A stretch of DNA of 22,663 nt, taken from contig JAFGOT010000038.1 in the NCBI GenBank assembly GCA_016926395.1, positions 1 through 22,663 of the forward strand, read 5' to 3'. Below, one piece after another: positions 1,713-22,134 of the stretch. A model generated the notes under the pieces. It saw nothing but the letters and a program-made list of their open reading frames with translations. It was not told the origin of the DNA and made no database searches. Source of the DNA: Candidatus Woesearchaeota archaeon. Lineage in GTDB: Archaea; Nanobdellota; Nanobdellia; Woesearchaeales; SKGA01. Within the stretch, counting starts at the first letter, position 1. Each line of letters opens with the position of its first letter. The position numbers and the translations under genes are program-made.

Positions 1713-2297
1713 ATGGTGAGAAAAGGTCAAGCTTCAGTAGAATTCTTAACCACTTATGGTTGGATGTTTTTAGTTGTTATTGTTGTTGCAATTGGGTTTG
1801 CTTATTTTGGTGTATTTGATGCTAATACCTACCTTTCTTCATCTTGTTCTTTTGATTCTTCTATTACTTGTCCTGTTTTTAATGTTCAATATGATTCCAT
1901 TAATGATCTTTACGTTGTTCAAATGGAAGTTGAGAATTTGTTAAATCAAAACATTAATGCTGTTGATTTGCTTTTTGGTTCTTATGTTAGTGATATTACT
2001 TGTCAAGCTTCTAGGGTAAAATTATCTACTGATGCTAATTATGTTTGTAATTATGGTGGTGGAAATACTTATGCCACTCCTGCTTGTCAATTGGCAGTTG
2101 CAACTTATGGATCTACACAAATAGATTTTATGTTTGAAAATGGTGTTAATGGATGTAATTTTACTGATGCGGGTATCGCAATGCCTCAGTTAAATGAGAA
2201 ATATTCTTTTAAAGTTGGTTTGACATATCTTCCTCAACAATCAAGTAAACCTTCTTTAACCTTTGGTCAAATGATTGCTTTGGTGAATCCAATTTAA
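1713..2297 (+). CDS. Archaeal type IV pilin-like protein (class III signal peptide)
   Basis: MVRKG|QASVE followed by a hydrophobic helix (Q at +1, E at +5), then a Cys-containing beta-rich domain. Confidence 0.8.
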
Positions 2298-3319
2298 AAA
2301 AATTGATATTTTATTTTTCCTTTAGGACCTAGTTCTAAGATTGTGAATCGTCCTTTACTTCCTTCGCCGCTGTTTATTCTAACATCACTTAGCCATTGAT
2401 TAGGATTTATTTCGGATTCTTTTTTGTTTATTGCTTTAGGTCCTGCTTCATGTATGTGGCCGCAGATTATTTTATTAATTTTGAATTTATTCATTAGGGT
2501 GGTTATATCTTTTGAACCAACATTTTTATTCATCACTTTTACAGGATATTTGTATTTTTTTAGAACTTTCACTTCATCCATTGTAAGAACTGAACCTTTT
2601 TCAAAAAGTTCATCCGTAGTGATTGTTTTGAATTCTTTTTTACGTAAGTCTTCTTTTTTTATAGAAAATGTTTTTGTTATAATCCCAAATTCTGCTAAGT
2701 CTATTCCATTCTTTGTTTTGCACAGTGGTGGATTGTGGCTTAATATTATTTTTTTTGAACCTGGTAGTGGGCTTAGATTTTTTTCTACTGTTTTGTAAAT
2801 GTCATCCATAAATACAAGAGTTCCTTTTCTTGCTATTCCTTTTTCTTTTAATTTTTTATTTGCTTCTTTTTGAACTTTGGTTTTGTCTCTTCCTCTTTCT
2901 ATTTGCCAATAGGATCCGCCTCTATAATTAGGAATTCCTGAGACAACAGACGAACTTCCACTGATTACGATAATTTCATACATGCCAATTTTTAGATAAT
3001 TGTGTTTATAGCCGTCGATTAGTTTTTTATTTTTTATTTTTTTTATTATTTCATCATATACTTCGTAGTTTTCATGACTTCCAGGTATTAGCAAAGTGTA
3101 TATATCAAGTTTCATAAATGCATTGACCACTTTTAATGTTCCAGGCATAGTGTAATCTGTGAAATCTCCACCTAGAACTATTAATGAGATATCGCCTTGT
3201 TTTTTTATTGTAGAAATTATTTCTTTAACATTATTAAATCCGTGTAAATCGCTGATAAATGCTATTTTTGGAAGTTTATCTTCGCAAGGTATTTTTCCTT
3301 CGCAAGGTACTTTTTTCAT
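2294..3319 (-). CDS. Calcineurin-like metallophosphoesterase
   Basis: Motifs SDLHG, GGDFT, PGSHE (GNH-equivalent), SHNPP and CGHIHE occur in canonical order. 4-bp tail-to-tail overlap with the pilin gene. Confidence 0.85.
3280..3315 (-). repeat. 18-bp tandem duplication at the N-terminus of the phosphoesterase
   Basis: CTTCGCAAGGTATTTTTC / CTTCGCAAGGTACTTTTT (16/18 identical), encoding K-V-P-C-E-G then K-I-P-C-E-D. Confidence 0.8.
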
Positions 3320-3356
3320 AATTCTTTACTTCGCACGTAGTATTTATAAATGTATT

Positions 3357-3376
3357 AGTTCAATAATTATTGAACT
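3357..3376. promoter_or_regulatory. Perfect 20-bp palindrome, candidate operator
   Basis: AGTTCAATAATTATTGAACT, just upstream of the TTTATAAA box (3343-3350) of the minus-strand phosphoesterase gene. Confidence 0.55.
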
Positions 3377-5592: not shown

Positions 5593-6826
5593 TTAATTTT
5601 CTTCAGGTGTTTTCTTTAATGGCATTCTTTTACCAAAAAGCATTTTCGAAAATATTATTACTGGTAAAAATATGAAAAAACCGTATAATAAGAATATTTT
5701 TACTCCAAGGATTCCAAGTAAAAAACCTCCTAATGCAAAACTTATTGTTATGGTTATTCTTGAAATAGAGCTATAGCTTCCAACAACTTTTCCTTCAATG
5801 TTGTTCGCCTCTGCAATGTCTGACATATATGACCACATTGAGATATTAAATAATGATCCGCCTACTGCTTTAACAAACAGCGCAACTAATATTATTTCAT
5901 ATGTTGGTGCTAAAAACAGTCCAAATAGGCCTATTGACGAGATTGTTAGTCCTATTGCTATTGTTCTTCTCTTGCCAATTTTATCTGCTACTTGTCCTGC
6001 GAATAATTGAAGAATGTGTGCTGCACCCATCATAAAGACAGCTACACTTAATTGTGCATTTGTTAGTCCCATTTTTTCTATTATAACAAAAGGAATAACT
6101 AAAATCATAAGGGGTGTTGTGATGTTTGCTAAAGCCCCAATAAATGCTAATTTTCTAAGCTTTGGATATGATAACATTTCTTTTACATCGGTAAATGGAT
6201 TAAGATCTTTTTTTCTTAATTTGTCTTTTTTTTCTGTGCGGTCTATTATCGTCATAAAATATTGTGTCAAATAGAAGTAATCCAAGCATTATTACAACAA
6301 TAACTACTAATGCTATGCTAAATACAGCTGTGTATCCATAATAATCTGCAATAAAACCTCCAATTAGTGGTGCTGTTATTGCTGAAACTGAAAGTATTGA
6401 TTGAAAAATGCCATTTATTCTTGATCTTTTAGAGCTGTCTTCTATAGTATCATTAACTCTTGATATTGCTGTGACTGTAACTGCATTGAATGCTATTGCT
6501 GAAATTATTCTAATTGCAAACAGGTATGGTGTTGATTTAATTGTTATGTATCCTATCAAAGCTATTGTTTCCAAAAATAAACCGAGTATTATTACTTTAT
6601 ATCTTCCAATTTTATCTGATATTGTTCCCATTATTGGGGCTGCAAAAATTCCAATGAATGCGAATAATGAGAAAAAATATCCTTTTAGTGCTTCAGACCA
6701 ACCTAGTGTTGAAAAGTATGGTGATAAAAAAGAAAGATACATATAAATTACAAAGTAAAGCAAAGCATCAAGGGCTGTTGTTTTCACAAATTTGTTAAAT
6801 AAAAAGTGGTCTTTGTAATAGCTCAT
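5593..6826 (-). pseudogene. MFS transporter split by a 1-nt frameshift (or a homopolymer sequencing error)
   Basis: N-half ORF 6200-6826 has motif A (GTISDKIGRYKV); C-half ORF 5593-6285 has GQVADKIGKRR. Removing one base from the T8 run at 6226-6233 joins them (…PHRKKDKLRKKDLNPF…) into one 410-aa, 12-TM-sized protein. Confidence 0.85.
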
Positions 6827-10784: not shown

Positions 10785-10847
10785 CTTTTGTTTTTTTATT
10801 TTTTCATACCATAACTTTTAAATACTCTTTTCCTTGTAATATTGTTT

Positions 10848-12224
10848 ATGAGATATACAAAAATTGTTGCAACCATTGGTCCTGCATGCGATACTAAAAT
10901 TGATCAACTAATTAAACACGGTGTGGATGTAGCTCGTTTGAATTTTTCTCATGGTAATTATGATTATTTTAAAAAAGTAATTAAGCAAATTAGGAATGTT
11001 AACTCTTTAATTCCTATTCTTCTTGATACTAAAGGGCCTGAAGTTAGAATTGGAGATATTAAGCCTACTCAAATTGAGAAGAATTCTTTTGTTAATCTTG
11101 TTCCTTTTGGTGCTAAACTTGATCTTGGTTCCATTCCTCTTTCATATACTAACTTATCTGCTGATGTGAAGAAAGGAGACAAATTGATGATTGATGATGG
11201 AAAATTAATTCTTAGAGTTGAACGTTTTGATGGAAAAACTGTTGTTTGTAAAGCTCTTGATTCTCACGTTCTTCTTCCAAGAAAATCTGTTGATGTTTTA
11301 GGAGGAAGTGTTAGTCTTCCCGATTTAACACTTCAAGACAAAAAAGACATTTCCTTTGGTGTTAAACAAGGAGTTGATATTATTGCAGTCTCTTTAGTGC
11401 GTAATGCGAAAACAATAACGCAAGTTAGAAAACTTGCTCCAAAACAATTTATTGTTGCAAAAATTGAACATCCTGAAGCTGTTAAAAACTTTGATGCGAT
11501 TTTATCTGTTTCTGATGGTATTATGATTGCAAGAGGAGATTTAGGTTTAACTGTTCCGACCGAAAAAGTTCCAACTCTTCAAAAAAAAATGATTGACAAG
11601 TGCAATTTAGCAGGAAAGCCTGTTATTGTCGCAACTCAAATGCTTGATTCAATGACTACAGAACCTATTCCTACGCGTGCCGAAGCTAGTGATGTTGCAA
11701 ATGCAGTTTTTGATGGTGTTGATGCTTTAATGCTTAGTGGTGAGACTGCTAGCGGTGATTATCCTATTGAATCTGTTAAGATGATGGAAAAAATTGCTCA
11801 TGAAGCTGATGCGCATTTAAAAGAAAAATCTGTTCATATTCATAAATCAAAAGAAACAATGGTTGAGAGTATGTGTGTTCTGATAACTGAAGCTGCTCAT
11901 GAGATGAATGTTAAAGCTATTATTACTCCGACGGTGACTGGATACACTTCTCGTCTTTTGGCAAAATATCGTCCTAAAATACCTATTGTGGGCATAACTA
12001 GAAATTTAGTCGTTGGTCGAACTTTAAATCTTTCAAAAGGCGTTCGTAGTTTTGTAATAAATAAACCAACTGCTCATTCTCAAATTAAAGAATGTATTGA
12101 TGAGATTGTTGATTTACATAATCTTAAAAAATCTGATCTTGTTATTGTGGCTTATAATAACAGTCAAAATGTTTCTGGCACTACTAATGTTTTTGAAATT
12201 CGAGAAGTTAAAGAGTTGATGTAA
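10848..12224 (+). CDS. pyk: Pyruvate kinase
   Basis: TKIVATIGPA, ARLNFSHG, DTKGPEVR, AKIE, IMIARGDLG, ATQMLDSM, MLSGETASG. ATG 10848 preferred over TTG 10842. Confidence 0.97.
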   Translation: MRYTKIVATIGPACDTKIDQLIKHGVDVARLNFSHGNYDYFKKVIKQIRNVNSLIPILLDTKGPEVRIGDIKPTQIEKNSFVNLVPFGAKLDLGSIPLSYTNLSADVKKGDKLMIDDGKLILRVERFDGKTVVCKALDSHVLLPRKSVDVLGGSVSLPDLTLQDKKDISFGVKQGVDIIAVSLVRNAKTITQVRKLAPKQFIVAKIEHPEAVKNFDAILSVSDGIMIARGDLGLTVPTEKVPTLQKKMIDKCNLAGKPVIVATQMLDSMTTEPIPTRAEASDVANAVFDGVDALMLSGETASGDYPIESVKMMEKIAHEADAHLKEKSVHIHKSKETMVESMCVLITEAAHEMNVKAIITPTVTGYTSRLLAKYRPKIPIVGITRNLVVGRTLNLSKGVRSFVINKPTAHSQIKECIDEIVDLHNLKKSDLVIVAYNNSQNVSGTTNVFEIREVKELM

Positions 12225-13979: not shown

Positions 13980-14441
13980 TTACATCAACCTATTCTTTTT
14001 ATGTTTGTAATGTAATGTTCCGCCAACAACTATTCCTGCAGATATAAGAACAAGATTCTTGAATATGTATTGTCCTTCCATTGATAATACAAATGGGAAT
14101 TTGACAAAAACTACTTGTGGTAGAAGAACTAATGGTAAAAATGTTCCTATCATTTGTGCAAATAATAATATTATTCCTATTGGGAGTGTTTTTCTAAATA
14201 ATAGTGTTATACCGATTATCACTTCCCACCAACCAACAATAAGTAGGAATGTATGTGGAGAGAACCAGAATGCTGTTGCATAAACCAAATCTGCTGCAGG
14301 GCTAAGACCAAGCGGTTTTAATATCCCAAACCAGAAAAAAACTATTGCAAGAGAGATTCTTAAAAATAATAGACCATGATTATCCATCCAAGTTTCTATT
14401 TTAGATTCAATATTTTGGATGGTTTTCTTGTTCATATTCAA
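13980..14441 (-). CDS. DoxX-family membrane protein (RclC/YkgB-like)
   Basis: LRISLAIVFFWFGILK, EVIIGITLL, GTFLPL, GQYIFKNLVL; four hydrophobic segments. Confidence 0.8.
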   Translation of the reverse strand: MNMNKKTIQNIESKIETWMDNHGLLFLRISLAIVFFWFGILKPLGLSPAADLVYATAFWFSPHTFLLIVGWWEVIIGITLLFRKTLPIGIILLFAQMIGTFLPLVLLPQVVFVKFPFVLSMEGQYIFKNLVLISAGIVVGGTLHYKHKKNRLM

Positions 14442-14482
14442 ATTATTATTTTTTTAGTTTATAAAAATTGTCTTTATATGTT

Positions 14483-16060
14483 TCAAATTCTTGATTCAAG
14501 ATTTAGTCTATAGCTTTTATTATATTTTAATTCTTTTTTTATTTGGGTGTTTTCATCCATTATTTTTTGAACTCTTCTTGTTATTGCCCAGACGTGGTTT
14601 GCAGATTCAAATGGTATTGGAATTTTAATTGTACTTGTTTTTTTTAGTGGCATTTCTGCGTTTGTTGGAATGTACTTGTTCATTATTGAATCATAACTTG
14701 TTTTACCTTGTTTTGTTATGAGTTCTGAAGTATATTTTGGACCCCAATTATATGCTAGTAATGCTAATTTTTCATCTTCAAATTTGTTAAGTAAATAATC
14801 CCAATAAATAATTCCTGCTTTTATATTTTCTTTTGTCGACTCATCTGTATCGCCCAGTGCTAATTCTTTATCTATTGGCAAGATTTTTGAGTATCTTGTT
14901 CCAAATATTGTTGTATCTGATAAATTATTATTCATCCAATCAATTGTGTTTGGCATTAATTGCATAATTCCTTTAGCACCTGATTCTGATATTATTGTAT
15001 TATTTTTTCTTTTTTGTAAATATCTTGATTCTTGATATGCTTTTGAAAGTATATATGCTATTGTTCTAGAACTATCAACTTCAAAACCTTTATTTATCAT
15101 TTCTTTTAAAACAATATCTGCAAGAACAATGTTTTTACTTCTCTCTTCGAGTTGTGGCCAATTTTTATTTGCCAAATCGAGTATATATGAATTTACTATT
15201 CCATCATAGTTTAATATTTTTTTATCTTCTAAAATTATTTCTATATTTTCTTTATTTCTTGTGGTTACTCCTGAGCTAGTTTGTTGAGGTACCATCTCCA
15301 ATCCTAGCATTAAAGTAACAGTTGCAATTGCGGCTTTTTGAACAGGGGTTAATCTTCTTATTTTTTCATCTTCAAATATTACTGTTGGATCTAATTTGTT
15401 GTTATTTTCATCTAATCCTAAATTTATTAGTTCTAACATGAATCCAGAATTAACATAATTTTTATCAAGTGTCGTGGTAGATATTCTATGTTGAAATTTT
15501 TTTGAAACTTTTTCTGCAGTTTCTGTTAGTTTTTTATATTTAATACTTTGATTTGAGTTTTGAAACTTATCTTGTACAAATCTTAGAACTTCGTATTTAT
15601 TGACATGTGTTGAATCCCAAATTCCTATGATTATTGATGTGTTAAGTAGTGACCCTAAATAAACCGCCTCATATGCTCTTGATTTTGAACGTATTTCAGG
15701 GTGTATTTGTTTATTTAGCGTTGCTTCTAGTGCTAATCGATGTTTTGTTGCAAAGTTTAATGATTTTTGTTGTTTATTTAATTTATTAATTTCTTTTTTG
15801 TATTGTTTAGCAGCTTTAAGTATTATTGACTCGAACTGTTTTATTGATTTTTTACTTTCTGGAAGTTGATTAAGAATTGTATCTGCCAAGCTTTCCAAAC
15901 TACTTGCTTTGTATTGGTTATTTTTAAATATTAATGCTCCTCTTCTAAAGAAAAATTCTCTAAGAATATCATATTCTCTACCATACTCTTTTTCCAATAT
16001 TTCTTTAGCACTTTTTACTTCTTCTTCATTTAAAAGTGTTTGAAGTGTGGATTGTTTCAT
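14483..16060 (-). CDS. Lytic transglycosylase (GH23/SLT domain) with large uncharacterised N-terminal region
   Basis: Motif I AYQES (catalytic Glu), motif II SESGAKGIMQLMPNT, motif III NIKAGIIYWDYLL…LALLAYNWGP; short hydrophobic segment AAIATVTLMLGL near the middle. Confidence 0.85.
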   Translation of the reverse strand: MKQSTLQTLLNEEEVKSAKEILEKEYGREYDILREFFFRRGALIFKNNQYKASSLESLADTILNQLPESKKSIKQFESIILKAAKQYKKEINKLNKQQKSLNFATKHRLALEATLNKQIHPEIRSKSRAYEAVYLGSLLNTSIIIGIWDSTHVNKYEVLRFVQDKFQNSNQSIKYKKLTETAEKVSKKFQHRISTTTLDKNYVNSGFMLELINLGLDENNNKLDPTVIFEDEKIRRLTPVQKAAIATVTLMLGLEMVPQQTSSGVTTRNKENIEIILEDKKILNYDGIVNSYILDLANKNWPQLEERSKNIVLADIVLKEMINKGFEVDSSRTIAYILSKAYQESRYLQKRKNNTIISESGAKGIMQLMPNTIDWMNNNLSDTTIFGTRYSKILPIDKELALGDTDESTKENIKAGIIYWDYLLNKFEDEKLALLAYNWGPKYTSELITKQGKTSYDSIMNKYIPTNAEMPLKKTSTIKIPIPFESANHVWAITRRVQKIMDENTQIKKELKYNKSYRLNLESRI

Positions 16061-16171
16061 CAGAACCCAAAATATGTTTAAAATAATAAATATTATGTTT
16101 TCTTTTTATAAATCGCTTTTATTTATTTAAAAGCAGAAGCTTTTTATTCTGTTGTGTTTTTTTCACCAACT

Positions 16172-16462
16172 ATGTCTGATTTACCTGTTATTAACTCAAA
16201 AATCTCTCAATCCATTATTGACAGAGAGTTTCTAATAATTGAAAATGTTCCTTTTTGTCTTTGTCCTATTGAGCACTGTTCTTATCTTTATTTCGGAACA
16301 GGAAAAGGTCAAAAACCATATGGCTGTTCTTCTTGCAAATTAAAATATTGGTGTGATTATGATAAATCTCAAGATTTAGAAATTGTTTCTTTGACTGATT
16401 GTGACCCTGATTTATTAAAATTCTTGGAGGAAAGAGATGAAAATATTAATGATTGGTTTTAA
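16172..16462 (+). CDS. Small Cys-rich protein with CxxCxxxxxC motif (SPASM-like Fe-S domain candidate)
   Basis: 7 Cys; IENVPFC … KPYGCSSCKLKYWC. Overlaps the radical SAM start by 26 bp and contains its GGAGG SD. Confidence 0.6.
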   Translation: MSDLPVINSKISQSIIDREFLIIENVPFCLCPIEHCSYLYFGTGKGQKPYGCSSCKLKYWCDYDKSQDLEIVSLTDCDPDLLKFLEERDENINDWF

Positions 16463-17594
16463 TATTCAAACTTCTATTTTTCCACTAGGCTTGAATTATC
16501 TTAAATCTTATGCTAAAAAGTTTCATCCAGATATTAATTTTAAAATTCAAGAGTTTGCTTTTGGTAATAAATTAAATCATGATATTAATAAGAATTTAGA
16601 GCTTCAAGTTATCAGTTATATTTTGGTTGAAAAACCTGATGCTGTTTGTTTTAGTACTTATATTTGGAGCGCAGAGTTAGTTAGAACTATTTGTTTGTCC
16701 TTAAAGAAAATATCTTCTATAAAAATAATTCTTGGAGGTCCTGAAATTGATAATTCCTACTTTGATTTCGCAGATTACTTAGTTATTGGTGATGGTGAAG
16801 AAAAGTTTGTAGACGTTCTTGACAACCTAACAAATTCTAAAACAAACCATTCTTTGGTAAATTTAGATGATATTCCTTTTCCATATAGATTTCACGAAGG
16901 ACCAAAAGACTATGCTGCAATTCGTATAGAAACCGCTCGTGGTTGTCCTTTTACTTGTGCTTACTGTAATTATGCATCTCGTGCTTATAAAGAATTTTCA
17001 TTATTATATCTTGAAGAGAATATTAAATACCTTTTTGAGAATTATACTTTTAGAAACTTAACAATTTTGGATGCTAATTTCAATCTTAAGAAGAATAGGA
17101 TGAAAGACGTGCTAGGTATTATATCTAGATATTCAAAAGATCACAAAATTAATTTTGAACTAAAACCTGAGTTGATAGATGAGGATGTTATTAAAATAAT
17201 TAAAGACTCAAAATTAAACATTTTCTGTGAGCTTGGTCTGCAATCAATATCTGAGAGTGTGTTGCATGACACAACTCGATCATATGATTTGGAGAAAGTA
17301 AAAAATGGTCTTGATTTACTAAATAAAAATAATATTCCTTACAAAATAGATTTAATGTATGGTCTTCCCAAAGATAACTTTTTTAGATTCTTAAGAACTA
17401 TTAATTTCATAAAAAAATATTCTAGACAAAAAGGAGTTCCAGCTCATCATTACATGTTGCTTAATAATACTTCTAATTCTAATTGTGTTCGTATGTTTGA
17501 AAATAATAGCAGCATGGTTATCAAAACAGACACGCAAGATGTTTTAGATTTGTATAAACAAAAATTGTTTATTGATTTAATTAATAAAAAATAA
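16437..17594 (+). CDS. Cobalamin-binding radical SAM protein (class B methyltransferase-like)
   Basis: N-terminal B12-binding motifs PLGLNYL, FSTYIW, LGGPE, GDGE; RGCPFTCAYC cluster motif; DANF, ELGLQS, DLMYGLP. Confidence 0.9.
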   Translation: MKILMIGFNIQTSIFPLGLNYLKSYAKKFHPDINFKIQEFAFGNKLNHDINKNLELQVISYILVEKPDAVCFSTYIWSAELVRTICLSLKKISSIKIILGGPEIDNSYFDFADYLVIGDGEEKFVDVLDNLTNSKTNHSLVNLDDIPFPYRFHEGPKDYAAIRIETARGCPFTCAYCNYASRAYKEFSLLYLEENIKYLFENYTFRNLTILDANFNLKKNRMKDVLGIISRYSKDHKINFELKPELIDEDVIKIIKDSKLNIFCELGLQSISESVLHDTTRSYDLEKVKNGLDLLNKNNIPYKIDLMYGLPKDNFFRFLRTINFIKKYSRQKGVPAHHYMLLNNTSNSNCVRMFENNSSMVIKTDTQDVLDLYKQKLFIDLINKK

Positions 17595-17597
17595 TTT

Positions 17598-18986
17598 TTA
17601 TTTCTTCTTTGTTATTTTTTTTACTGTGTTTTCGATAAATGCCATGCTACTAGTTGCGCTACTTACTGCAAATCCTAATGGTCTATGAACTAAAATTTCG
17701 TAAAATAATCTTCTATCTTCTACTTTTTCATGGTTTTGTATTTCTTTGACTTTCGGCGTTGCTGTTATTGCAATTATTAGTCTTAGTATTCCTGATGTTG
17801 TTATTACTATTATTAATGCTGTGAGTATGTTGGTTTGCTTTGTTAGTATCATAACTGAAAAACTTCCTATTAAACCACCTAATAATATTAAAAAATTAAA
17901 TATCACATTATAATATGCAAACAATTTTACTCTTCGCTTTGGACTTGAGGCATCTAACATATAATTAAATGTAGTTAGTTCCATCCCTGCCCACGAAAAT
18001 CCACTGGTCATTTCAATAATTAAGATTGCGATGAATAAAGTGTTATTTTTAAAAAGCAATGTTGCAATCAACCAATTAATAGGTATTATGCCGATTAATA
18101 TTGCCGTTACTCTTAGTATATTTTTATTTCCAAAATGATGACTAAGTCTTCCCCAATAAGTCATTGTCAGTGCTTTAATTATCATTGGTGCTAGAACAAT
18201 TACGCTAAACTGCAAATATGTAAAATTAAAAACCTTCAACATTAATACAGCAAAAAATGGGGATGCAATCATCACTGCAAATGATAGTGATGAACGAAAA
18301 ATAACAAATCTTCCAAACGCATTTTTTCTCAGTTCTAAAACAAAATCTTTAAAACCGTTGTTACTAAATATTTCGCTTTGATACGTTGGCTCTTTGTGTT
18401 TAAAAAAAAGAATGAATGATATGAATCGACCTATAAATGCCATTAAAAATAGTATTCCAAATCCGACCCAGATATTATCTTCTAAAAAATTAAGTATTAA
18501 TCCACTAATTAAAACTGATGAGAACAAAAATATTATTGTTATTCTGTTTCTTAAACTGAAATATTTGCTTCTTTCATTCATTGGTATTACATCACCTAGC
18601 CATGAACTCCATGCAGGAGCTGCGATGTTTCCAAATGAAAGATATATTGTGAAAATTATTGCTAATACCCAAAAGTTTTTTGTTATGACGGGTAGAATAA
18701 ATAATGGTATGAATGTTAATGCTTGCAATAAAACGAATGTTAAAACTATTCTTTTTCTATTTTCATACTTGTCTGTAATCTTAGCACTCAGTAGTTGAAA
18801 TAATGATCCTAAAAATGAAGGTATTGAGGAAAGTAATCCTATTTGTCCGCTACTAGCTCCCAATCTAAGTGCAAACGGAACAACATACTGTTCTCCAAAT
18901 CCAAGCATTAAGCTAGCAGCAGAACCTTCTGCTATTGATGCTTTTTTAGTTTGGTCAATTTCCTTATGGTTTAGTTCATTTTTCAA
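17598..18986 (-). CDS. MFS transporter
   Basis: About 12 hydrophobic segments, GASSGQIGLLSSIP, ITDKYENRKR and WGRLSHHFGNK loops. The TTG start is supported by CTTATAAA 25 nt upstream (19011-19018, minus strand). Confidence 0.85.
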   Translation of the reverse strand: MKNELNHKEIDQTKKASIAEGSAASLMLGFGEQYVVPFALRLGASSGQIGLLSSIPSFLGSLFQLLSAKITDKYENRKRIVLTFVLLQALTFIPLFILPVITKNFWVLAIIFTIYLSFGNIAAPAWSSWLGDVIPMNERSKYFSLRNRITIIFLFSSVLISGLILNFLEDNIWVGFGILFLMAFIGRFISFILFFKHKEPTYQSEIFSNNGFKDFVLELRKNAFGRFVIFRSSLSFAVMIASPFFAVLMLKVFNFTYLQFSVIVLAPMIIKALTMTYWGRLSHHFGNKNILRVTAILIGIIPINWLIATLLFKNNTLFIAILIIEMTSGFSWAGMELTTFNYMLDASSPKRRVKLFAYYNVIFNFLILLGGLIGSFSVMILTKQTNILTALIIVITTSGILRLIIAITATPKVKEIQNHEKVEDRRLFYEILVHRPLGFAVSSATSSMAFIENTVKKITKKK

Positions 18987-19089
18987 GAAGCAATCGGTGA
19001 AAATATTTTGTTTATAAGCTTATTCTTTTCGTGTTATTTTCGATTTTTGCATCTAAATTTATTTTAAATGATTTTGTTAATTTAATTTT

Positions 19090-21396: not shown

Positions 21397-22134
21397 TTAA
21401 TTTAAGAAATCAATCGTTAGTGTAATTGGGTCTATTGCTATTTTTTCTTCTTTTTCTATGTTTGAGTCATCTCCTAAGAAGTATCCGTTTGCTCCATCCC
21501 CAACAATACAATCCATATCGTCGAAAATGTAATAATCAATTCCGTTGTAATATTCATCCCAAGTTGTATCATACAATAAATCGGCAACGTATTGATTTGT
21601 AGATTCGACATCAAGTCCACAAACTAAAGAATAAGCATGATCTTTTGTTAGAACAAGTTTAGTTTCAATACCAACGTTTTCAAGTAAGCTGTTATACAGA
21701 ATTGTTAAGTCTTCACAATCTCCACCACCAACTTCTAAAGTATCATGTGGTGATTGAATAAGTTCAACGCCTCTTGGATCACTAATATATTCATAATTCA
21801 TAACAACATAATCAAATATTTCTACAGCTCGACATTCATCATCAGAACAACCTTCACTTATCTCAGCAGCTAAGACTCGCAAATCGTGATTGTCTGTAAT
21901 TATTGCATCTAAGTATGGTTTTGTATCTGCTAAAACTTCTTCTTCATCGTATTCAACATAAACTGGTTCAGACTTTTCTTCGACAATAGTTGTAGTTTCT
22001 TCATGAGTGCTTGTTTGTTGTTGAGTGTTTATTTCTTGAGTTGGCTGAATATTGTTAATTGGTTCTTCAGAATAATTTGAACATCCTGTTAGAATTAATG
22101 AAAGAACCAAAATTGCTAAGAACATATATTTCAT
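21397..22134 (-). CDS. Transglutaminase-like (Cys protease fold) lipoprotein
   Basis: Lipobox LILTGC, low-complexity Q/T/E linker, YEYISDP…QSPHDTL…GGGDCEDLTILYNSLLENVGI…DHAY. Confidence 0.8.
   Translation of the reverse strand: MKYMFLAILVLSLILTGCSNYSEEPINNIQPTQEINTQQQTSTHEETTTIVEEKSEPVYVEYDEEEVLADTKPYLDAIITDNHDLRVLAAEISEGCSDDECRAVEIFDYVVMNYEYISDPRGVELIQSPHDTLEVGGGDCEDLTILYNSLLENVGIETKLVLTKDHAYSLVCGLDVESTNQYVADLLYDTTWDEYYNGIDYYIFDDMDCIVGDGANGYFLGDDSNIEKEEKIAIDPITLTIDFLN

Follow-up and report, generated by a model that had tools for sequence, protein, structure and literature searches.

The window analyzed here is the entire contig C6 (22,663 nt; JAFGOT010000038.1) of the Candidatus Woesearchaeota assembly GCA_016926395.1, a genome (G000) of 1.02 Mb in 40 contigs that is 82.5% complete and 0.95% contaminated. 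On its minus strand (positions 14483–16060), an open reading frame (ORF) that is open for 525 residues plus a stop codon encodes a protein, referred to as P0001, with an SLT domain of glycoside hydrolase family 23 (GH23). Based on its sequence motifs and structural model, P0001 is probably an active family-1 (GH23) lytic transglycosylase. The explanation that best accounts for the observations overall, to which we give an even chance, is that of an accessory enzyme, dependent on Glu344, that would act on bacterial murein outside the cell and would be anchored with its N-terminus in the cytoplasm and its C-terminus outside.

The gene is organized, from the N-terminus, into an orphan domain (residues 1–235, positions 15356–16060), a weakly hydrophobic segment (residues 239–257, positions 15290–15346), a linker (residues 258–329, positions 15074–15289), the SLT catalytic domain (residues 330–470, positions 14651–15073), and a C-terminal region (residues 471–525, positions 14486–14650) that contains the fourth motif of the family and then a long helix (residues 484–524), all on the minus strand. 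A TATA-box-like sequence, TTTATAAAAA (positions 16103–16112, minus strand), is located about 50 nt upstream of the ATG and is read as a candidate archaeal promoter.

The SLT domain of P0001 is confirmed, and the match is far beyond chance. The Pfam SLT family (PF01464) matches residues 341–456 with an E value of 4.2e-10 and a score of 39.7 bits, compared to a gathering cut-off of 21.3 bits, and the same domain is recovered in a six-frame profile search of the genome (E 7.8e-11). The initial annotation, made from the DNA letters, had called this domain together with three GH23/SLT motifs that include the catalytic Glu residue, and both the call and the motifs are borne out. The motifs are Q-E344-S345, G364-I-M-Q367, and A436-Y-N-W-G440, the second of them being part of the longer S-x-x-G-A-x-G-L-M-Q motif, which is present as S358, G361, A362, and G364-I-M-Q367. 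The column of E344 is occupied by Glu in all 55 aligned homologs, and the adjoining column by Ser in 49 of the 55. The other near-invariant columns of the alignment in P0001 are S358, A362, G364, Q367, N412, G416, Y419, A436–G440, and E485.

In the AlphaFold2 model of the protein, residues 330–525 have predicted local distance difference test (pLDDT) values of about 90 (73–94 for residues 471–525), and the linker has values of 28–46. E344 and S345 are at the end of a helix (residues 329–345), and the codon of the predicted catalytic Glu344 is at positions 15029–15031 on the minus strand. The model of the SLT domain is most similar to LtgA (5mpq), with a VIA Z score of 14.8 and a root-mean-square deviation (rmsd) of 2.8 Å over 150 residues at 21% identity. 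It is followed by MltC (4cfo, Z 14.0), Slt70 (1sly, Z 13.8), and MltD, MltF, and MltE (Z 12–13.5). All of the best structural matches are murein lytic transglycosylases, and the GH23 chitinase of Ralstonia sp. A-471 (3w6e, Z 12.0) comes after them. On the basis of this model, a lysozyme-like α-helical fold is assigned to the SLT domain with confidence.

The host of this gene is an archaeon, as had been supposed. The aIF2-gamma gene of the same contig (positions 146–1537) has its nearest relatives, in a comparison with 185,579 species genomes, among Candidatus Woesearchaeota metagenome-assembled genomes (76% identity), and the contamination of the assembly is low. The premise that this organism does not synthesize peptidoglycan holds as well, for a genome at 82.5% completeness. 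Profile searches find no Mur ligase, penicillin-binding protein (PBP) transpeptidase, SEDS, or GT51 gene in it, and each of these families is detected in 10–12 of 14 control genomes with the same searches. As no murein-synthesis genes are found, a foreign wall would be the natural substrate of the enzyme. M23 and Amidase_2 domains were also not found.

The N-terminal region, of about 250 residues, could not be assigned initially, and it still has no match in Pfam, PHROG, NCBIfam, the Protein Data Bank (by sequence), or the ESM Atlas. Residues 1–235 are modeled as all-helical with low confidence (pLDDT 44–77 in the full model, and a mean of 44 for the N-terminal domain alone), which is too low for a meaningful fold search; the Atlas structure matches to this domain have TM scores of 0.35 or below and are unrelated to each other. 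No full-length homolog of P0001 was found in a word-based search of 5.8 billion proteins or in an exhaustive HMMER search of 1.84 billion representative proteins. The HMMER search gave only a 96-residue fragment (P0002), one protein with the N-terminal domain (P0003), and weak SLT matches (E values above 1e-8). The P0002 fragment, from another data set (a Logan assembly), is 88% identical to the N-terminal domain of P0001 and begins at the same start Met. P0003, from another species of the same genus (G013, contig C30), is 31% identical to the domain over 224 residues (BLASTP E 2e-20). A profile search with the N-terminal domain finds only P0002 and P0073, the divergently transcribed neighbor of P0003. 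By these searches, the orphan domain is a tiny family restricted to the genus.

The two genes of this other species (1441–2535 on the minus strand and 2435–3361 on the plus strand of locus L012; the contig is also covered by L022) both contain the orphan domain, and one of them has N-terminal membrane segments in addition to a C-terminal hydrophobic tail. In P0003, the domain is followed by the sequence KKFKR, a hydrophobic segment rich in Ala, Ser, Thr, and Gly, and then about 26 residues, without an SLT domain. Moreover, the G013 genome has no Pfam SLT match anywhere. As P0003 has the domain and the segment without SLT, and its genome lacks a Pfam SLT match, the ancestral unit looks like an N-terminal domain plus a C-terminal hydrophobic tail, with the SLT domain having been added behind it in the species studied here.

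The segment that follows the orphan domain in P0001, AAIATVTLMLGLEMV (residues ~239–257), is rich in Ala, Thr, and Gly. It has a cluster of Lys and Arg residues on its N-terminal side, and the position of the hydrophobic segment is kept in P0003. Its 12-residue core, AAIATVTLMLGL, has a mean Kyte-Doolittle value of about 2.1, calculated by hand. The segment is a possible signal-anchor, and the chances that P0001 is tethered to the membrane through it appear to be roughly balanced. Most SLT proteins of related genomes carry evident N-terminal signal peptides or anchors, which suggests that the clade exports its SLT enzymes and also makes P0001 atypical among them. An SLT protein of one relative (locus L035) has an internal membrane segment (residues 104–124) ahead of its SLT domain.

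In the favored explanation, a divergent SLT domain, probably acquired separately, would have become fused to the C-terminal side of a helical domain plus a short hydrophobic segment, a pair that is otherwise seen in just one further species of this Woesearchaeota genus, where it is without SLT. The N-terminal domain would be kept in the cytoplasm, the weak segment, with the positive charges on its N-terminal side, would act as the signal-anchor, and the C-terminal SLT domain would be displayed outside the cell. There it would cut the bond between N-acetylmuramic acid (MurNAc) and N-acetylglucosamine (GlcNAc) of bacterial peptidoglycan, giving rise to 1,6-anhydro-MurNAc ends. Since murein is not made by the archaeon itself, the enzyme would be directed at the walls of neighboring bacteria, which might be opened locally for attachment or access, or attacked in antagonism. 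P0001 would then be a second, species-specific enzyme beside a large surface protein with SLT and NlpC/P60 domains that is encoded on contig C15.

Several observations weigh against this explanation. For export, the mean Kyte-Doolittle value of the 239–257 segment over 19 residues is 1.23, compared to the customary 1.6 for a membrane helix, a similar value is found inside the N-terminal domain (residues 129–147), and the segment contains a Glu residue. The central hydrophobic segment of the initial annotation is thus present, but its hydrophobicity falls short of what would define a membrane helix. The protein also has no N-terminal signal peptide, with neither a Sec signal nor a lipobox at its N-terminus. 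For catalysis, the fourth motif ('IP..ET..Y') has His489 where its Tyr would be expected. Among 54 aligned sequences, this column has Tyr in 48, Phe in three, His in two (one of them P0001), and Trp in one. Pfam SLT is not strictly defined by this Tyr, which presumably contributes to catalysis in MltE and Slt70. The SLT domain also has two insertions compared to its homologs, one after the E-S motif and the other after AYNWG. LysM, as a peptidoglycan-binding module, was not found, nor was the anhydro-MurNAc kinase AnmK; the latter result leaves the scavenging of bacterial walls, one of the roles suggested earlier for the enzyme, without support. Finally, the gene may be a recent, possibly transient acquisition, as it occurs as a singleton and its island is atypical in composition.

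SLT domains are common among the relatives of this archaeon, being above the Pfam cut-off in 28 of 41 related genomes and in 19 of 25 genera. The genome itself has a second murein-hydrolase ORF (G000:C15:63776–64678, minus strand), of 1370 residues, with SLT (E 4.4e-7) and NlpC/P60 (E 7.5e-10) domains. Counterparts of 1379–1860 residues that carry SLT are present in several genomes of the genus, and the C15 protein is of the conserved, 'large extracellular' type of murein hydrolase (Castelle et al. 2021). On the other hand, no full-length ortholog of P0001 was found in 40 relatives, and the best match to its SLT domain among 400 genomes of the order is 40% identical over 92 residues (G083). 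From these comparisons, P0001 is not orthologous to any SLT gene found in the clade.

The best SLT matches anywhere (41–45% identity) are to small metagenome proteins, at least some of which (P0005, P0006) have signal-peptide-like N-termini, and to one bacterial-looking protein of 597 residues. No match was found in genome contigs scanned with P0068, from these nearest SLT relatives, or in viral contigs and JGI metagenome contigs scanned with P0001. A maximum-likelihood tree of the SLT domains (78 rows, 104 columns) is mostly unresolved. It groups P0001 with database proteins (SH-aLRT 89–94) and away from all 15 sampled Woesearchaeal SLT domains, which are themselves scattered. The tree gives weak support for a separate acquisition because its database rows were chosen as the best matches of P0001.

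Two proteins of related genomes, of 441 residues (L024 8068–9393, G005:C21) and 447 residues (L023 6495–7838, G008:C15), contain a very divergent SLT-like domain (with ATES, GVFQF, and AAKHNAG), which is not reported by Pfam SLT but is detected by P0001 at E values of about 1e-5. The G008 protein has a clear N-terminal hydrophobic segment. The two genes share their context, in the order metK, thrS, the SLT-like gene, a CPBP-like gene, and a PAS regulator. As such divergent proteins escape Pfam SLT, the Pfam-based counts of SLT are too low for the genus.

The SLT gene sits in a species-specific accessory island. An AT-rich block (positions 13980–19061) contains a DUF417/DoxX-like membrane protein, the SLT gene, a small ORF with seven Cys residues, a B12-binding radical SAM gene, and a transporter of the major facilitator superfamily (MFS). 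The guanine-plus-cytosine (GC) content of the block is 27.5–28.8%, compared to 32.1 ± 1.9% for the genome, at percentiles 0–4 of 1895 windows and thus the lowest of the genome. No ortholog of the radical SAM or the DUF417-like gene is present in 13 genomes of the genus, and the distant matches of the two (27–36% identity) are in one genome each. The gene had been described as sitting among host-like genes, a description that does not fit this lowest-GC block of 5 kb, in which the two neighbors tested are without orthologs in the genus. It had also been noted that no phage genes are adjacent. This is literally true, but an element bearing an integrase starts about 3 kb away, at 19.15 kb, and the gene itself is in a compositionally odd island.

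It is also possible, though unlikely, that the SLT gene was carried in as a passenger on DNA gained by horizontal transfer. Its SLT domain would have arrived with a mobile element, for example as a phage tail or virion lysin or as a VirB1-type enzyme of a bacterial conjugative system, and the gene would persist in a variable island with no role toward bacteria, perhaps unexported or decaying. The low GC content of the block, its neighbors without genus orthologs, the lack of a close SLT relative in the 400 genomes of the order, and the missing signal peptide would all fit such an origin, as would the grouping of P0001, in a poorly resolved tree, with database proteins (one of them, P0006, clearly bacterial-looking) and with none of the Woesearchaeal domains. 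In addition, the PHROG matches of P0001 include a lytic tail fiber protein (E 1.9e-8), and the integrase and a NikA-like gene are only 3–5 kb away. However, the reading frame is unbroken for all 525 codons and retains each of the core motifs, the N-terminal two-fifths of the protein belong to the genus and are not of foreign origin, and the 88%-identical fragment from another data set has the same start Met. No capsid, tail, or other virion gene, type IV secretion system (T4SS) gene, or relaxase gene is present in the window. No close relative is found in phage records, where the best match is 27% identical, or in viral contigs, and the integrase element appears to begin outside the block.

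A quite unlikely alternative is that the enzyme acts on a glycan other than murein, such as chitin or chito-oligosaccharides, surface glycans of archaea that are rich in GlcNAc, or the wall of a host that is itself an archaeon. The model does match the GH23 chitinase of Ralstonia, the change from Tyr to His in motif 4 and the two insertions could alter specificity, and neither LysM nor another murein-binding module was found. Moreover, all DPANN archaea cultivated to date have, to our knowledge, archaeal hosts. Against this alternative, the best structural and sequence matches of P0001 are all murein lytic transglycosylases. Pseudomurein has β-1,3 links to N-acetyltalosaminuronic acid, and we know of no GH23 enzyme that cuts these links. 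In another protein of the genome, that on contig C15, SLT is paired with the murein peptidase domain NlpC/P60, which points to murein as a target of this organism.

It is more doubtful still that P0001 represents an architecture not described before, in which a genus-specific cytoplasmic domain would be tail-anchored by a weak segment, rich in Ala, Gly, Ser, and Thr and resembling signal-arrest-release (SAR) sequences, and would hold a captured foreign SLT domain outside the cell. Such a protein could be a releasable, regulated weapon for cutting walls, or a trans-membrane sensor that would signal the presence of bacterial peptidoglycan to the cytoplasm.

In a related and very unlikely alternative, the SLT domain would be a catalytically weakened peptidoglycan-binding module that serves outside the cell in sensing or adhesion and is coupled across the membrane to the helical domain in the cytoplasm. 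The type II-like layout with a sizeable cytoplasmic domain, the His residue in motif 4, and the occurrence of the N-terminal domain and hydrophobic segment on their own in G013 are consistent with it. However, the catalytic Glu-Ser pair and all the motifs of the substrate groove are intact in P0001, the N-terminal domain contains no recognizable signaling domain, and the topology rests on the weak segment.

That the contig is bacterial, or chimeric at the SLT gene, is scarcely credible despite the local dip in GC content and the typically bacterial distribution of SLT seen in the control genomes, because native archaeal genes with counterparts in the genus flank the block on both sides (Prx 57–63%, orf172 54%, and integrase 37% identity), the homologs of the N-terminal domain are found only in the same archaeal genus, and the tetranucleotide distance of the locus is unremarkable (80th–86th percentile); contamination is only 0.95%, and SLT genes are common in the order.

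The DUF417-like gene is located downstream of the SLT gene and has a TATA-like box of its own. It was considered as an operon partner and rejected, since in relatives it is linked neither to SLT genes nor to those for the N-terminal domain and since it has its own TATA-like box; a holin-like role for it was also dropped, as evidence was lacking. On the other side (positions 16154–17594, plus strand), the ORF with seven Cys residues, of 102 residues, overlaps the start of a compact B12-binding radical SAM gene of 385 residues, whose best NCBIfam match (TIGR04013) is far below the cut-off. Neither of these two genes has an ortholog in the genus. The MFS transporter of the block is in a convergent orientation.

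The element with the integrase, a NikA-like gene, and a transglutaminase gene extends from 19.15 kb to the end of the contig, with the SLT block lying outside it. The transglutaminase-core protein is encoded at positions 21397–22134 on the minus strand, inside this element; pseudomurein endoisopeptidases have a fold related to the transglutaminase core. No att-like direct repeats are found around 13.98–19.06 kb, where there are only short, AT-rich repeats at the level of chance, and the window contains no tRNA gene.

In a relative (G003), the genes that match the window to the left of 8.5 kb (β-propeller, MFS, and RNase T) are only 2.2 kb from the orf172–integrase pair, which is 11 kb away here. 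At the place of these extra 11 kb, the relative has a gene (L017 11266–12462, G003:C3) for a protein with a lipoprotein-type signal, an OmpA-family domain, and a VWA domain; the OmpA-family domain, which is of a peptidoglycan-associating kind, scores just under its cut-off (25.7 compared to 27.2 bits). On the same contig, four co-directional genes without assignment (L017 413–5411; 684, 256, 257, and 87 residues) are followed by a gene for a 307-residue SLT protein (E 2.6e-17). The latter adjoins a TctA gene, a few kb past the counterpart of the integrase of the window.

An MFS transporter of the window at positions 5593–6826 on the minus strand is contained in two overlapping ORFs (5593–6285 and 6200–6826). 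The two parts match adjacent stretches in G003 that start in the same frame, which indicates that the gene in the window is frameshifted, is a pseudogene, or has been affected by an error in sequencing. The genome has two pyruvate kinase genes that are 37% identical to each other, at positions 10842–12224 of the window (plus strand) and at G000:C7:3379–4722, and the copy in the window is the one that matches the relatives in the genus at the DNA level.

At the other end of the window, a 194-residue protein (positions 1713–2297, plus strand) has an archaeal class III (prepilin-like) signal, KGQ/ASVEFL, followed by a hydrophobic helix. It has paralogs on contigs C10, C19, and C20 and no match in Pfam or NCBIfam. 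The initial annotation had raised a possible link between the SLT gene and this pilin-like gene. The link is not supported, since the two genes are 12 kb apart with housekeeping genes between them, and a functional connection was rejected, as only the contig is shared, the class III signal notwithstanding.

Murein lytic transglycosylases have been described before in Woesearchaeota, and interaction with or predation on bacteria was inferred from them (Castelle 2015, AR20; Rinke 2013; both as cited in PMC8204110). Large extracellular SLT proteins of Woesearchaeota and Pacearchaeota, of up to about 3000 residues, make up family fam00969 (Castelle 2021, PMC8204110), and GH23 was found in five Lake A metagenome-assembled genomes (Vigneron 2022, PMC9723730). 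The inference of a bacterial partner for this clade was therefore already published in 2015, 2021, and 2022 (PMC8204110, PMC9723730) and is not new. More recently, archaeal peptidoglycan hydrolases were shown to kill bacteria (PLoS Biol 2025, PMC12352652). That survey describes Nanoarchaeota as rich in such hydrolases, is by its own account likely to be weighted to hydrolases of Gram-positive origin, and, in the passages considered, mentions murein transglycosylases only by citing the Woesearchaeota work. What is particular to P0001 is its orphan status, the fusion to a genus-specific domain, the lack of a clear export signal, the His residue in place of the Tyr in motif 4, and its location in an island.

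If it is active and displayed, P0001 would be a clonable handle for testing whether Woesearchaeota, which are uncultured, make physical contact with bacteria rather than archaea. Its modest length of 525 residues would make it convenient to produce for an initial biochemical assay. The idea of bacterial contact itself is better served by the large SLT proteins that are conserved and evidently exported, such as the one encoded on C15. P0001 indicates that SLT domains are gained more than once and become joined, in variable islands, to modules specific to a lineage, which suggests that the set of wall-cutting enzymes in these archaea changes from species to species.

Among known systems, the SLT proteins of the fam00969 type are from the same clade as P0001 and share with it the domain and the proposed role against bacterial walls; the C15 protein of this genome is one of them. 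Unlike this type, P0001 has only 525 residues, carries neither an export nor a prepilin-type signal, and is located outside pilin-like operons. In the search of 400 genomes of the order, no SLT domain exceeded 40% identity to that of P0001, and P0001 is not placed with fam00969 by relatedness.

The SLT enzymes of phages and secretion systems (phage tail or virion enzymes, phiKZ gp144, and VirB1-type proteins) resemble P0001 in having the SLT domain behind a non-catalytic module. P0001 further resembles the phage type in that its PHROG matches include lytic tail proteins, that it matches phiKZ gp144, and that it is located in an accessory island. It differs from the phage and VirB1 types in that virion, tail, and T4SS genes are missing from the window, its best phage match is only 27% identical, and no match is present in viral contigs. 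The archaeal hydrolases of PMC12352652, which serve as tools against bacteria, and P0001 are alike as archaeal hydrolases of bacterial walls, the activity of P0001 being predicted from sequence.

The closest likeness in fold is to the bacterial family-1 lytic transglycosylases. Compared to these enzymes, P0001 is from an archaeal host without murein, lacks a Sec signal or lipobox, and is only about 20% identical in sequence. It has an orphan helical module at the N-terminus instead of the superhelical, LysM, or ABC-binding-protein-like modules of the bacterial enzymes, and has His489 for the Tyr of motif 4 as well as the two insertions. On the other hand, Slt70, LtgA, MltC, MltD, MltE, and MltF all have the same fold as the model of P0001 (Z 12–15, rmsd 2.8–3.9 Å over about 150 residues), and P0001 shares with the bacterial family-1 enzymes the single catalytic Glu in the E-S motif, together with the GLMQ-type and AYNxG motifs.

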